From: Nocardioides sp.
Lineage (GTDB): Bacteria; Actinomycetota; Actinomycetes; Propionibacteriales; Nocardioidaceae
Length of the DNA: 64,000 bases
Direction: 5' to 3'
NCBI RefSeq assembly: GCF_047602075.1
Contig: NZ_JASGIF010000002.1
Location: forward strand, 1,322,609-1,386,608
Numbering within the stretch: position 1 is the stretch's first letter; every line of letters starts with the position of its first letter. The translations under genes were made by a program, and so were the position numbers. The notes under the pieces were generated by a model. That model saw only the letters and a list, made by a program, of their open reading frames with translations, ran no database searches and had not been told where the DNA came from. Positions 20,621 to 30,712 of this stretch are shown here, piece after piece.

Positions 20621-21913
20621 CTACGGACCGAGCCGATGCAGGTCCCGGGGAAACAGGGTGACCTCGCGGATGTTCGCCGCCTCGACCAGTCGCGCCACCC
20701 AGCGCTCGAGCCCGATGGCGAAGCCACCGTGTGGTGGCATGCCGTGCCGGAACGCCTGGAGGTACGACGCGTAGTCGGCCGGGTTCTCGCCGCGGGCGCA
20801 GATCGCGGCGTCGTACTCCGATGGGCGGTGCAGGCGTTGTCCGCCGGTGACCAGCTCGAGGCCTCGGAAGAGCAGGTCGAAGCTGTTGGACCAGCGTGGG
20901 TCGTCGGGCTGCGGATGGGTGTAGAACGGCCGCTTCGCCATCGGATAGCCCTCGACCGCGATGAAGTCTGAGCCATGCTCGGCCTGCGCCCACTCGCCCA
21001 GCCAACGCTCGTGGTCGGGGGCGAGGTCGGGCTCGTCCTCGGCGGCACCGACCAGTCGCAGCGCGTCACGGAAGTGCACCACCGGGATCTCCTCCGGCAG
21101 CGCGGGCAGGGTCAGGTCGAGCCGGTCGACCGCAGCGGCGGCCTCCCGCTCGATAGCGCCGATCATCCCCGCCAACGCGGCGCGGAGAGTCGCGAGCACA
21201 TCGCGATGGTCCCGGATGAAGCCCAGCTCGGCGTCGAGGGAGACATACTCCGCCAGGTGTCGCACGGTGTCGTGCGGCTCGGCCCGGAAGACCGGACCGA
21301 CCTCGTAGACACGCTCGAAGACACCGACCATCTGCTGCTTGTAGAACTGCGGGCTCTGGGCCAGGTAGGCGGGCCGCCCGAAGTAGTCGACCTCGAAGAC
21401 GTTCGCGCCCGACTCCGTGGCCTGGGCCACCAGCTTCGGGGTCTGGATCTCGGTGAAGCCCAGCCCGTCCAGCGCACCGCGGAAACCGCGGATGCTCGCC
21501 GCGGCCAGCTCCCATCGGGCGCGCTGAGCGGGGTGGCGCCACGCCACCGCCGCGTGGTCGAGCTGCACGGGCAGGGTTGCCGACAGGTGCGGGCGCCACA
21601 GCTCGAACGGCGGAGTCTGGGCCGCTTCGCTCAGTGGCCGCACCCTCGCCTCGGTCACTTCGACGCCGCCGGGCGCCTGGGCGTTGGCGACCAGCGTGCC
21701 GATCACCTCGACCGGCGTCTCCTCGGGAGGGACGTCCGCGTCTGCGGGCAGCACGACCTGGGCCAGGCCGGTGCGGTCGCGCACGACCAGGAACGTCACC
21801 GTGGCCAGCTCACGGCGCCGATGCACCCAGCCTTGGAGCAGGACCAGGTCCCCGGGCGGAGCGGTGGGTAGGTCGGCAGCGAGCCTGCGGTGGGGACGGG
21901 CAGGGTCGGTCAT
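20621..21913 (-). CDS. aspS: Short (archaeal-type) non-discriminating aspartate--tRNA(Asp/Asn) ligase
   Basis: 430 aa, OB-fold GWVHRRR/FLVVRD, YLAQSPQFYKQ, FRAE, GMPPHGGFAIGLER; no bacterial insertion domain; GGAGGTG SD 8 nt before ATG 21913. Confidence 0.9.
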   Translation of the reverse strand: MTDPARPHRRLAADLPTAPPGDLVLLQGWVHRRRELATVTFLVVRDRTGLAQVVLPADADVPPEETPVEVIGTLVANAQAPGGVEVTEARVRPLSEAAQTPPFELWRPHLSATLPVQLDHAAVAWRHPAQRARWELAAASIRGFRGALDGLGFTEIQTPKLVAQATESGANVFEVDYFGRPAYLAQSPQFYKQQMVGVFERVYEVGPVFRAEPHDTVRHLAEYVSLDAELGFIRDHRDVLATLRAALAGMIGAIEREAAAAVDRLDLTLPALPEEIPVVHFRDALRLVGAAEDEPDLAPDHERWLGEWAQAEHGSDFIAVEGYPMAKRPFYTHPQPDDPRWSNSFDLLFRGLELVTGGQRLHRPSEYDAAICARGENPADYASYLQAFRHGMPPHGGFAIGLERWVARLVEAANIREVTLFPRDLHRLGP

Positions 21914-22070
21914 CAGGGGTTCACCTCCGGTCTCGAGTGAGCCCTGGAGGTGCGGGCGGGGGCTAGGTCGCGGTGCCACCACACCTTCGCCGGCAACGCC
22001 GCCGGCCTCTCGTCGGTTCGCCGGACGCGCGGCCCCCGCTCGTCGGGGGTCGTCACGCCCCAGCAGGAAC
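21911..22070 (-). ncRNA. Compact translational (class II) T-box riboswitch, predicted Asp specifier
   Basis: Antisequestrator: GGUGUGG(21985-21979)/CCGCACC(21955-21949), 7-nt bulge UGGCACC, GCG/CGC. Stem III GCCGGC/GCCGGC. Alternative hairpin CACCUCC/GGAGGUG buries the SD. Stem I 22070-22032 carries GAC+G in a 3' bulge. Confidence 0.8.
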
Positions 22071-22077
22071 GGCGGGC

Positions 22078-22083
22078 AGTCTA
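22078..22083 (-). promoter_or_regulatory. Candidate -10 element TAGACT for the aspS leader
   Basis: TANNNT hexamer 7 nt upstream of the first base of predicted Stem I; a hairpin CCCGGG-TGCGA-CCCGGG (22084-22100) follows the GNAT stop. Confidence 0.5.
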
Positions 22084-22111
22084 CCCGGGTCGCACCCGGG
22101 CCGCGGACGCA

Positions 22112-27276: not shown

Positions 27277-27475
27277 GTTCGAGCCGTCATCAGCGGCGAG
27301 CCTCCGGAAGAACAGCTGGCCTCGGATGAGACCGGCTCAGTAGAACCGGACGGGTAGGCCCGTCACAGCCGGCAACGAGCGGTCCCGCCGCGCAGGCGGT
27401 CGGGGCAAGCGAGGTGGTACCGCGGCCCGGTCGGGTCGTCCTCGTGCAGGAGCACGACGTACGACGACCAGGAGA
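27277..27475 (+). ncRNA. ileS translational T-box riboswitch (ultrashort Stem I type)
   Basis: AUC specifier 27289-27291, GAGCC..GGAAGAAC, AGUAGAAC, Stem IIA/B, CGAGG-UGGUACC-GCG...CGU-CCUCG (27410-27443); matches the known actinobacterial ileS leader layout. Confidence 0.93.
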
Positions 27476-27481
27476 GACGCG

Positions 27482-30400
27482 ATGACCTACCCGAAGGTCG
27501 CCACCGGCCAGTCCGGTGAGCACGAGCACGTTCCAGCGACGCCGAACTTCCCGGCGATCGAGGAGCGGGTGCTGGCCTACTGGGCGCGCGACCACACCTT
27601 CGAGGCGAGCGTCGAGCTCCGCGATTCCGGTGTCGACGGGGACAACGAGTTCGTCTTCTACGACGGCCCGCCGTTCGCCAACGGACTGCCGCACTACGGG
27701 CACCTGCTCACCGGCTATGTCAAGGACTTGATCCCGCGCTTCCAGACCATGCGCGGCCGTCGGGTGGAGCGCCGGTTCGGTTGGGACACCCACGGCCTGC
27801 CTGCCGAGCTGGAGGCGATGAGCCAACTGGGCATGAAGACGACCCAGGAGATCCTCGATCTGGGCATCGAGCAGTTCAACGCGGAGTGTCGGCGCTCGGT
27901 GCTGACCTACACCCAGGAGTGGCGTGACTACGTCACCCGTCAGGCCCGGTGGGTGGACTTCGACAACGACTACAAGACGCTCGACCTGAACTTCATGGAG
28001 TCCGTCCTATGGGCGTTCAAGGAGCTCTACGACAAGGGCCTGGTCTACGAGGACTTCCGCGTCCTGCCCTACTGCTGGAACGACGAGACCCCGCTGTCCA
28101 ACCACGAGCTGCGGATGGACGAGGACGTCTACCAGGATCGCCAGGATCCCGCGGTCACCGTCGGGATGCGGCTGGAGACCGGTGAGCTGGCGCTGGTCTG
28201 GACCACGACCCCGTGGACGCTGCCGTCCAACCTGCTGATCATGGTGGGCGACGACATCGACTACGTGGTGGTGGAGTCGGACCAGCCGACCGGATCCACC
28301 GAGCGCTATCTGCTGGCCGAGGCGCGGCTGCCGGCGTACGAACGAGAGCTGGGCGTGGACGCGCCGGTCGTGGAGCGGCTGAAGGGACGCGACCTGGTCG
28401 GGCGCGCCTACACCCCGCCGTTCACCTACTTCGAGGGCACGGCGCATGCGCACCGGGTGGTCGAGGCGCCGTTCGTGACGACCGAGGACGGCACCGGGCT
28501 GGTGCACTCGGCCGGCGCCTACGGTGAGGAGGACAAGGTGATCACCGACCGCGAGGGCATCGAGCTCGTGGTCGCCGTCGGCAAGGACGGCCGGTTCACC
28601 TACCCGATCACCGACTACGCCGGGATGCACGTCTTCGACGCGAACGTCCCGATCATCGGGCACCTCAAGGCGGCCACCCGCGGCGAGGGGGAGATCGGCA
28701 GCGTCGTGCCCGGCACCGTCCTGGTGCGGCGAGAGAGCTACGAGCACTCCTACCCGCACTGCTGGCGCTGCCGGCAGCCGCTGATCTACATGGCGGTGTC
28801 GTCGTGGTTCGTCGACACCCGCATGTTCCGTGACCGGATGCTGGAGATCAACCAGGACATCCGCTGGGTCCCCGAGCACGTTCGAGACGGGCAGTTCGGC
28901 AAGTGGCTGGAGAACACCCGCCCGTGGTCGATCTCCCGCAACCGCTTCTGGGGCTCCCCGATCCCGGTCTGGCGCTCCGACGACCCGGCCTATCCGCGGA
29001 TCGACGTCTACGGCTCGCTGGACGAGCTGGAGCGCGACTTCGGGGTGCGGCCGGACAACCTGCACCGTCCCTTCGTCGACGAGCTCGTGCGCCCGAACCC
29101 CGACGACCCGCGGCCGGTCGGGGAGGGCAAGTCGATGATGCGCCGCGTCACCGACGTGTTCGACTGCTGGTTCGAGTCGGGGTCGATGCCGTTCGCCCAG
29201 GTGCACTACCCGTTCGAGAACCGGGACTGGTTCGAGCACCACTTCCCGGGCGACTTCATCGTGGAGTACATCGGCCAGACCCGCGGCTGGTTCTACACCA
29301 TGCACGTGCTCGCCTCGGCGCTGTTCGACAAGCCGGCATTCTCGACCTGCGTCTCGCACGGCATCGTGCTGGGCTCGGACGGCAACAAGATGAGCAAGTC
29401 GCTGCGCAACTACCCGAACGTCTACGAGGTGTTCGACCGCGACGGCGCCGACGCGATGCGATGGTTCTTGATGAGCTCACCGATCCTGCGTGGCGGCAAC
29501 CTGATCGTGACCGAGCAGGGCATCCGCGAGTCGGTGCGGCAGGTCCTCATCCCACTGTGGAACTCGTGGTACTTCTTCGCGCTCTACGCCAACGCCGCCG
29601 GAGTGACCGGCTACAGCGCGGGCTGGCGCACCGACGCCGAGCATCCGATGGACCGCTACATCCTGGCCAAGCTGCACGACTACGTCGAGGCGATGACGCG
29701 CCAGCTGGACAACTACGAGGTCGCCAACGCGTGCGACTCGACTCGGGCGTTCCTCGACGTGCTCACGAACTGGTACATCCGGCGTTCCCGCGAGCGGTTC
29801 TGGGGCACCGACGACGGCCTGGACCGCGACGCCTTCGACACGCTCTACACCGTGCTCGAGGTGACCACCCGAGCCGCGGCGCCGCTGCTGCCGCTGACCA
29901 CCGAAGAGGTCTGGCGTGGCCTGACCGGAGAGCGCTCGGTCCACCTGGCCGACTGGCCGCTGGCCGCCGACCTCCCGGCTGATGCCGAGGGTGTCGCCGC
30001 GATGGACCAGGTTCGAGAGGTGTGCTCGGCGGCGTCCGCGCTGCGCAAGGGCGCCGGCCTGCGCAACCGCTTGCCCCTGGCGGCGCTGACCGTCGTCGTC
30101 CCGGACGCCGGCCGACTGGCAGACCTGACCGGCATCGTCGCCGACGAGGTCAACGTCAAGGAGGTCCGGCTGCTCGACATCGACGACCCCGCCGCGTCGT
30201 CGTACGACGTCACGCAGCGGCTCACCGTCAACGCCCGCGCGGCCGGACCACGGTTGGGCAAGGAGGTCCAGAGCGTGATCCGAGGCGCCAAGGCCGGCGA
30301 CTGGTCGGTGGCCGAGGACGGGGTGGTGACCTGTGCCGGCGTGCCGCTGCAGGACGGTGAGTTCTCCCTCGAGACGGTCGCCGCGGAGTCCGACGGACAG

Positions 30401-30712
30401 TCCGCGACCGGTCTGCTGCCGAGCGGAGGCTTCGTCGTGCTCGACACCGCCGTGACGGCCGAGCTGGCCGCGGAGGGGCTCGCTCGCGATGTGATCCGAG
30501 CCGTGCAACAGGCCCGCAAGGATGCCGAGCTGGAGGTCTCCGACCGGATCCAGCTGGCGGTCGACGGGTCGGCCGACGTCCGCGCAGCGGCCCGTGAGCA
30601 CCAGGCCCTGATCGCGGGGGAGACGCTGGCGGAGGTCCTGGTGGTCGCCGATGACCCGCCGACCGAGGGGACCGAGACGGGCCGGATCGAGGTTGCCGTC
30701 GCCAAGAGTTGA
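27482..30712 (+). CDS. ileS: Isoleucine--tRNA ligase (type 2)
   Basis: [34 protein letters not shown]. Confidence 0.98.

Follow-up and report, generated by a model that had tools for sequence, protein, structure and literature searches.

A probable T-box leader of reduced layout, specific for tRNA-Asp, ahead of an accessory archaeal-type aspartyl-tRNA synthetase gene in Nocardioides

Does the leader of an extra aspartyl-tRNA synthetase (AspRS) gene in Nocardioides sp. hold a tRNA-sensing switch, and which tRNA would it read? The locus lies in a 64,000-nt stretch of contig NZ_JASGIF010000002.1 (hereafter the window), where 198 nt of the minus strand separate the end of a GNAT acetyltransferase gene (22112) from the ATG of the next open reading frame (ORF; 21913). 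This ORF, aspS2 (20621..21913, minus strand), encodes an archaeal-type AspRS paralogue of 430 aa that matches the NCBIfam model NF003483, ‘aspartate--tRNA(Asn) ligase', with 514.6 bits (cut-off 353). On comparative grounds, the leader of aspS2 is very probably a real T-box that is specific for Asp and acts at the level of translation; the element proper spans 22070..21922 on the minus strand, to which all leader coordinates below refer. The original prediction, made from the letters of the window, had assigned the same identity and specificity, and these held, while parts of its 5' layout had to be redrawn.

The discriminator of the leader contains the exact T-box core GGUGGCACCGCG, and the exact core GGTGGNACCGCG occurs at just two sites in the window, at 21980..21969 upstream of aspS2 and ahead of the isoleucyl-tRNA synthetase gene ileS; the consensus T-box sequence (A)GGGUGGNACCGCG is matched by GUGGUGGCACCGCG at 21982..21969. 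aspS2 was found in 24 of the 41 close relatives and is thus an accessory gene, since some relatives are without it; all 24 orthologues carry GAAGGUGUGGUGGCACCGCGA upstream, followed by the arrangement CCACACCUCC...GGAGG. A scan of named genomes provided 80 further loci (including Nocardioides, Oerskovia, Promicromonospora, Cellulomonas, Kribbella, Nocardia, Micromonospora, Nonomuraea, Amycolatopsis and Chloroflexi), and the T-box core was present upstream of aspS2 in 77 of them; overall, the core is kept in ~100 orthologous leaders from several actinobacterial orders and Chloroflexi, and the element is far beyond chance expectation. Sorting of 101 leaders yielded 51 with a long Stem I and the Asp codon GAC, 44 with a short hairpin and a U-GAC-R loop, and one with AAC, so that the specifier is GAC in 95 of the 96 classifiable leaders. 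Furthermore, the long-Stem-I leaders (Nonomuraea, Micromonospora, Kribbella and others) are matched over their full length by the Rfam T-box family RF00230 (39-73 bits, E 5e-5 to 8e-14) and show the K-turn, AG bulge, distal loop and classical Specifier Loop GAA-GAC-A; the leader in the window, with its reduced 5' half, is therefore homologous to bona fide Asp T-boxes.

The closest relatives of the leader were aligned as a subfamily of 28 sequences (Nocardioides and allies, Oerskovia, Promicromonospora and Cellulomonas), to which the counts below refer unless another number is given. In the predicted ON-state structure, which comprises the specifier hairpin, helices IIA and IIB, Stem III and the discriminator helices A1 and A2, 96.2% of cells were paired and 10 of the 27 pairs were changed on both sides (34 cells); the covariation among related leaders, proposed at the outset as a check, was thus observed. 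None of 500 shuffled controls reached the observed pairing or double changes, and partners slid out of register gave 34-54% pairing. A covariance model built from this alignment located the aspS2 leader as the sole site in its own genome (127.6 bits); two weaker matches within coding sequence (18.9 and 14.2 bits) were rejected as T-boxes. The model matched 85 of 251 genomes of the family, and all 29 of the hits retrieved adjoin the upstream side of aspS2. Across 77 model-aligned leaders, 97.2% of cells were paired with 140 double-change cells (0 of 500 shuffles), in an alignment that leans towards the model.

The 3' half of the leader was found as originally drawn. The discriminator, or antisequestrator, GGUGUGG-UGGCACC-GCG...CGC-CCGCACC (21985..21949), consists of the 7-bp helix A1 (GGUGUGG/CCGCACC), the 7-nt bulge UGGCACC with UGGC at 21978..21975, and the 3-bp helix A2 (GCG/CGC) closed by the loop ACCUAGCCCC; A1, the 7-nt bulge and A2 are 100% consistent in all leaders, with every A1 and A2 pair formed and two A1 pairs doubly changed. 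Ahead of it, Stem III (22006..21989) pairs GCCGGC (22006..22001) with GCCGGC (21994..21989) around the loop GGCGUU; it is 99% paired, with double changes in three of its five scored pairs, and in four of five among the 77 model-aligned leaders. The purine linker AGAG (22010..22007; ACGAGAGG with its flanks) precedes Stem III and is almost invariant across the 28 relatives; its counterpart in the ileS leader of the same window is ACGAGCGG, a parallel that had been drawn before. The C of the UGGC bulge complements G73 of both tRNA-Asp(GUC) and tRNA-Asn(GUU) of this genome, and the UGGU of the ileS leader matches A73 of its tRNA-Ile(GAU), so that the genome's own tRNAs agree with the discriminator bases that had been assumed.

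The sequestrator hairpin pairs CACCUCC (21952..21946) with GGAGGUG (21928..21922), which contains the Shine-Dalgarno (SD) sequence GGAGG; its CACCUCC strand overlaps the 3' strand of A1 by 4 nt. The hairpin was paired in 87% of cells in the 28 sequences, the SD is paired in the minimum-energy fold of the leader, and no terminator-like site was found within the leader. Five leaders of the Micrococcales type carry A-U for U-A as the third pair of A1, and in the same five the base after GGAGG is A in place of U, with the SD-adjacent sequestrator pair turned from A-U into U-A. Covariation of one alignment column thus extends to both of the partners that it can pair with, which is expected if A1 and the sequestrator exclude each other, in agreement with the exclusive SD-hiding hairpin of the original prediction.

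A further possible contact was noticed in this region. The A2 loop (21968..21959) always contains CCC and a GGG always follows A1 by 3-5 nt (21944..21941) in ~100 leaders, with flanks that co-vary by lineage (GCCC/GGGC, UCCCUU/AAGGGG and GUUCCCG/CGGGGAU). The pairing of A2 loop and GGG shows a small excess over permuted pairs (mean run of 4.85 compared with 4.60). In Chloroflexi, the CCC/GGG helix is the stem of a terminator; for Actinobacteria, a pseudoknot between it and the SD sequestrator is conceivable.

The 5' half raises the question of which tRNA is read and where. A basal helix, P1, joins GUUCCUGCU (22070..22062) to AGCGGGGGC (22040..22032) and encloses the specifier hairpin, an ultrashort Stem I (22061..22046) in which GGGG (22061..22058) and CCCC (22049..22046) flank the loop CGUGACGA; both helices had been recognised originally. 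In individual folds, an enclosing helix of 8-10 bp was predicted in most of the 28 relatives, the alignment being poor at P1, and the specifier hairpin covaries, its second pair being G-C or A-U, in 13 sequences each. The apical loop reads NNU-GAC-RN(N) in 27 of the 28 (C-G-U-G-A-C-G-A in the window), with the core UGAC[G/A] in 27 leaders and UAACG in one; the Asp codon GAC (22054..22052) has an invariant U before it and a purine after it, and the purine-followed codon (GAC then G, 22054..22051) is complementary to the GUC anticodon of tRNA-Asp.

The UGGC bulge suits tRNA-Asn equally well, which raises the alternative that tRNA-Asn is read in addition to, or instead of, tRNA-Asp, with a shortage of Asn-tRNA as the physiological signal. 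No asparaginyl-tRNA synthetase (AsnRS) above cut-off was found in the genome, which encodes GatB; for these reasons Asn-tRNA is expected to be made by transamidation, with at least one non-discriminating AspRS, and the enzyme family of aspS2 loads Asp on tRNA-Asn for this route. From its family name and a genome without AsnRS, the aspS2 product may be the non-discriminating enzyme; this could equally be the bacterial-type AspRS, the gene of which follows hisS on another contig. An Asn T-box on the operon of an extra AspRS is reported from Clostridium acetobutylicum (Saad 2012, as given in PMC4206432). Several apical loops contain GAC-AAC. In one congeneric leader (L009, genome G009), AAC occupies the specifier position with GAC right behind it (loop CAUAACGAC), and the remainder including UGGC is unchanged; this leader may have switched to, or added, tRNA-Asn sensing, which if true would suit a non-discriminating AspRS. 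The arrangement is reminiscent of the two-codon T-box of C. acetobutylicum, the codons of which are reportedly Asn and Glu. On the other side, GAC is fixed at this loop position in 27 of the 28 close relatives and is present in each of the 51 leaders with a long Stem I, its pairing with the GUU anticodon would place a G-U pair at codon position one, and conservation does not extend to the second triplet of the loop; these points together make the reading of tRNA-Asn unlikely.

With Asp as the preferred specificity, the position of the codon was considered. The original prediction had placed the specifier, in what it called canonical geometry, in a 3' bulge, where the internal loop CGACG (22045..22041) indeed offers GAC followed by a purine (GACG, 22044..22041). 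This internal loop is not conserved: the segment that holds it varies from 4 to >40 nt, a second hairpin takes the place of the bulge in most relatives (~18 of 28), and GAC occurs anywhere in the region in only ~10 of the 28, at differing positions, whereas UGAC in the apical loop is practically invariant. We therefore assign the specifier to the apical loop, the position known from ultrashort ileS T-boxes, because the U-GAC-R loop is fixed and the bulge region is variable; the bulge was rejected as specifier, a layout that we regard as very improbable, and its GAC is probably a coincidence. In three leaders (L039, L040 and L006), the optional second hairpin within P1 also has a loop with UGAC(A/C), with no family-wide pattern.

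Directly after P1 (22031 is next to 22032) follows the near-invariant 21-nt block CGCGCGUCCGGCGAACCGACG (22031..22011). A tiny Stem II had been proposed here (22027-22011), and RNAalifold likewise renders the block as a small hairpin; this simple hairpin breaks in three sequences (G to A in the column of 22021) in which an alternative helix, IIA, is compensated, and it was rejected. IIA pairs 22031-22029 with 22021-22019 and is 100% paired, with C-G replaced by U-A in the three sequences and by U-G in one; one or two events may account for these compensatory changes. IIB pairs 22027-22024 with 22014-22011, of which three pairs are well kept and the fourth is formed in just 14 of the 28 leaders. 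The layout, 3+7+3+4+5, equals that of the canonical IIA/B element of orthologous leaders (e.g. Kineosporia and Nonomuraea), and its size is the 21 nt given for IIA/B in PMC7583486. An H-type IIA/B pseudoknot of 21 nt is thus likely, though not proven.

Upon inspection, 22070..22032 lacks a K-turn, an S-turn Specifier Loop, and the AG bulge and distal loop of an elbow platform. An S-turn Stem II is likewise absent: P1 runs straight into the pseudoknot block, which leaves no space for a further hairpin, and AGUA/GAA is missing; the second hairpins within P1 of the relatives have no S-turn motifs. The list of missing modules drawn up at first (Stem I distal motifs, K-turn, S-turn and IIA/B) therefore stands except for its last item, given the IIA/B-like block with its one covarying pair.

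At the 5' end, a probable -10 box, TAGACT (22083..22078), is present where it had been proposed, and TAnnnT occurs at the same alignment columns in the 28 relatives, with its A and last T invariant. A sigma-70 consensus scan of the leader found no promoter, so that conservation is what points to this box; the probable transcript start is near the first base of P1. A perfect hairpin, CCCGGG-UGCGA-CCCGGG (22100..22084), follows right after the GNAT stop codon, ends next to the TAGACT box and possibly serves as a terminator without U-tract that insulates aspS2 from the upstream gene.

These elements suggest the following course of regulation. Transcription would begin just past the TAGACT box, and the apical loop of the short hairpin would offer U-GAC-G to the GUC anticodon of tRNA-Asp. 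The small IIA/B-type pseudoknot would come next, with no S-turn Stem II, K-turn or elbow-binding platform to assist it, and Stem III and the discriminator would probe the 3' end of the tRNA, with UGGC pairing to G73-C74-C75-A76 only if the tRNA is unaminoacylated. Uncharged tRNA-Asp would stabilize A1 (GGUGUGG/CCGCACC), keep CACC off the SD and leave GGAGG free for translation of aspS2; without uncharged tRNA, CACCUCC and GGAGGUG would pair and block translation initiation. We infer tRNA binding, the switch, the pseudoknot and induction upon a shortage of aspartate or Asp-tRNA; what is observed are the motifs, the kept and compensated pairs, the match to the tRNAs of the genome and the kinship with leaders that Rfam scores as T-boxes.

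Several results count against the proposal that this leader is a working Asp T-box. No family reached its gathering threshold when Rfam was run over the whole window, and a search of the leader with RF00230, suggested with the original prediction, returned no match even at E up to 10; the E<=10 matches of other families on the leader (AS1726, mir-339 and an HTLV frameshift site) were dismissed as chance. The folding energy of the leader is unexceptional (z = -0.96), most pairs of the discriminator and sequestrator are invariant and hence uninformative, and few lineages supply the compensatory changes (those in the column shared by A1 and the sequestrator, for example, are from one Micrococcales-like clade). 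Furthermore, the parts that proved necessary for holding the tRNA in experiments with known T-boxes are missing here, namely the elbow platform (classes I and II) and the S-turn Stem II (class III; PMC7583486 and PMC10482949), so that high-affinity binding is not to be assumed.

Two of these results carry limited weight. The ileS T-box of the window, 5 kb away, served as an internal comparator (27309..27446, plus strand, ahead of the ileS ORF at 27482..30712): its alignment shows the UGGU bulge, an S-turn Stem II with AGUA and a IIA/B element, and it scores just 25.7 bits with RF00230 (local E 6.5e-4), for which the gathering threshold is 93 bits. Since a T-box of an accepted type scores this low, the threshold is uninformative for Actinobacteria; likewise, with z = -0.96, single-sequence folding is uninformative. 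The annotation gap is wider than this locus, as 17 orthologous leaders that were scanned were sub-threshold or without match, and second T-boxes would for this reason be missed by scans at gathering thresholds. A decayed T-box that no longer binds tRNA, with an SD-masking hairpin that is constitutive or controlled otherwise, e.g. by temperature, protein or translational coupling, would account for the missing tRNA-holding modules and for the accessory status of aspS2 (24 of 41 close relatives), yet it is highly improbable, because conservation almost to the letter across genera and Micrococcales-like genomes, which is unexpected of a relic, is seen in the specifier loop, UGGC, the pseudoknot block and the two strands of A1, and the N of UGGN still complements the tRNA.

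The preferred reading as an Asp-specific translational T-box was then set against known systems. According to PMC10482949, four T-box classes are currently recognised: class I with a long Stem I bearing the elbow platform and an S-turn Stem II; class II, the glycine-specific glyQS type, with a long Stem I and no Stem II; class III, the ultrashort ileS type; and class IV, also ileS, with an intermediate Stem I and a side-bulge specifier. The class III ileS T-boxes of Mycobacterium tuberculosis, M. smegmatis and Nocardia farcinica (Sherwood 2015, Battaglia 2019, and Suddala & Zhang 2019, via PMC7583486 and PMC10482949) share with the aspS2 leader the SD-sequestering platform, the short Stem I with its codon in the apical loop and no elbow platform, the purine linker, Stem III and a UGGN bulge in the discriminator; their IIA/B pseudoknot has a likely counterpart in the 21-nt block. 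They differ from it in having an Ile specifier, UGGU in place of UGGC, an apical loop of 5-6 nt (as stated there) instead of 8-9 nt, and the S-turn Stem II that is reportedly required in class III; in contrast, the aspS2 leader precedes an accessory archaeal-type aspS gene and has an extra basal helix around the specifier hairpin, with a variable second hairpin in relatives. The aspS2 leader is thus closest to class III and, being without Stem II, appears to fit none of the four published classes. The class II glyQS leaders of Bacillus subtilis and Oceanobacillus iheyensis resemble it in the lack of a Stem II domain and a short joint between Stem I and the Stem III-discriminator part; unlike it, they have a long Stem I, a K-turn, an essential elbow platform, glycine specificity and a transcription terminator.

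Two further systems are related through the gene or the specificity. The C. acetobutylicum T-box on an extra non-discriminating AspRS with GatCAB (Saad 2012 and 2013, as covered by PMC4206432) likewise connects tRNA sensing to a supernumerary AspRS and the tRNA-dependent route to Asn-tRNA; it differs in belonging to a Firmicute, in its canonical long Stem I and in acting on transcription, and the title of Saad 2013 describes a two-codon T-box with two tRNAs bound. The same GAC, UGGC and discriminator sequence recur in the canonical Asp T-boxes (RF00230) ahead of aspS or hisS-aspS in Firmicutes and in the orthologous aspS2 leaders with a long Stem I (Micromonospora, Nonomuraea and Chloroflexi). 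In contrast to the leader in the window, these T-boxes keep the K-turn, the GAA-GAC-A internal loop, the AG bulge, the distal loop and often Stem II; those of Chloroflexi end in terminators.

Other orthologous leaders are reduced in different ways. Asp-specific leaders that have a long Stem I but no Stem II occur in Kribbella and many Nocardioidaceae. In Terrabacter, Flexivirga, Humibacillus and Intrasporangium (L057, L058, L060, L066 and L047), a K-turn and a 3-4 bp hairpin showing CCUGACGAU are joined by a linker of ~15 nt to Stem III and the discriminator, with no Stem II, IIA/B or elbow platform, in an RNA of ~115 nt up to the end of the antisequestrator. These combinations, long Asp leaders without Stem II, the ultrashort hairpin with IIA/B and the Terrabacter type, are absent from the four-class scheme. 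It is conceivable, though somewhat doubtful, that the aspS2 leaders constitute an undescribed natural reduction series of one T-box, the last two types of which would, if functional, form a fifth structural class. Equally tentative is the order of such a series, which would run from the full form (long Stem I, Stem II and IIA/B) through the non-glycine long Stem I without Stem II and the ultrashort hairpin with IIA/B to the Terrabacter type.

Literature searches, which did not extend to TBDB, Sherwood 2015 or Vitreschak 2008, brought up no description of an Asp T-box from Actinobacteria. Two comparative surveys list only ileS T-boxes in Actinobacteria (PMC1262725 and PMC2494555), and the translational model of TBDB was seeded on isoleucyl leaders only. 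The extra AspRS genes of Actinomycetales without AsnRS have been noted in PMC4206432, where regulation is not mentioned; the T-box would supply a rationale for them, with a back-up enzyme translated only upon the appearance of uncharged tRNA-Asp. The mechanism itself is familiar; what sets the leader and its relatives apart is the missing tRNA-holding modules. Structural work on T-boxes, built on glyQS and ileS, has led to the rule that tRNA capture depends on one of two modules, the elbow platform of Stem I or the S-turn of Stem II; the leader in the window and its relatives are without both and yet strongly conserved. If the last two types are functional, the tRNA would be held and proof-read through the loop-loop anticodon contact and the NCCA contact, aided at most by a 21-nt pseudoknot. 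This would contradict the rule, and the aspS2 leaders would offer a natural series for probing how small a tRNA-sensing RNA can be.

The distribution of the leader types also bears on the history of the gene. The leaders of Oerskovia, Promicromonospora and Cellulomonas (L035, L037-L040 and L045) are near identical in architecture to the Nocardioides type; five of the six score 146-156 bits with the covariance model and that of Cellulomonas 106, and the proteins are 72-75% identical. Other Nocardioidaceae genera have a long-Stem-I leader instead. Since the Micrococcales match the Nocardioides type and other Nocardioidaceae do not, the pattern suggests that aspS2 was transferred horizontally together with its leader.

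Finally, one leader from a metagenome-assembled genome of an uncultured Actinomycetota (L029) carries a palindromic repeat, UUGACGACUGCGUC...GACGCAGUCGUC, inserted after the A2 loop (GCCCCC) at ~1060-1128, in which CUCGAGCUUGCUCGAGCC occurs twice. This insertion shifts the sequestrator and the 3' strand of A1 out of place, and the copy is for that reason probably an inactivated switch.

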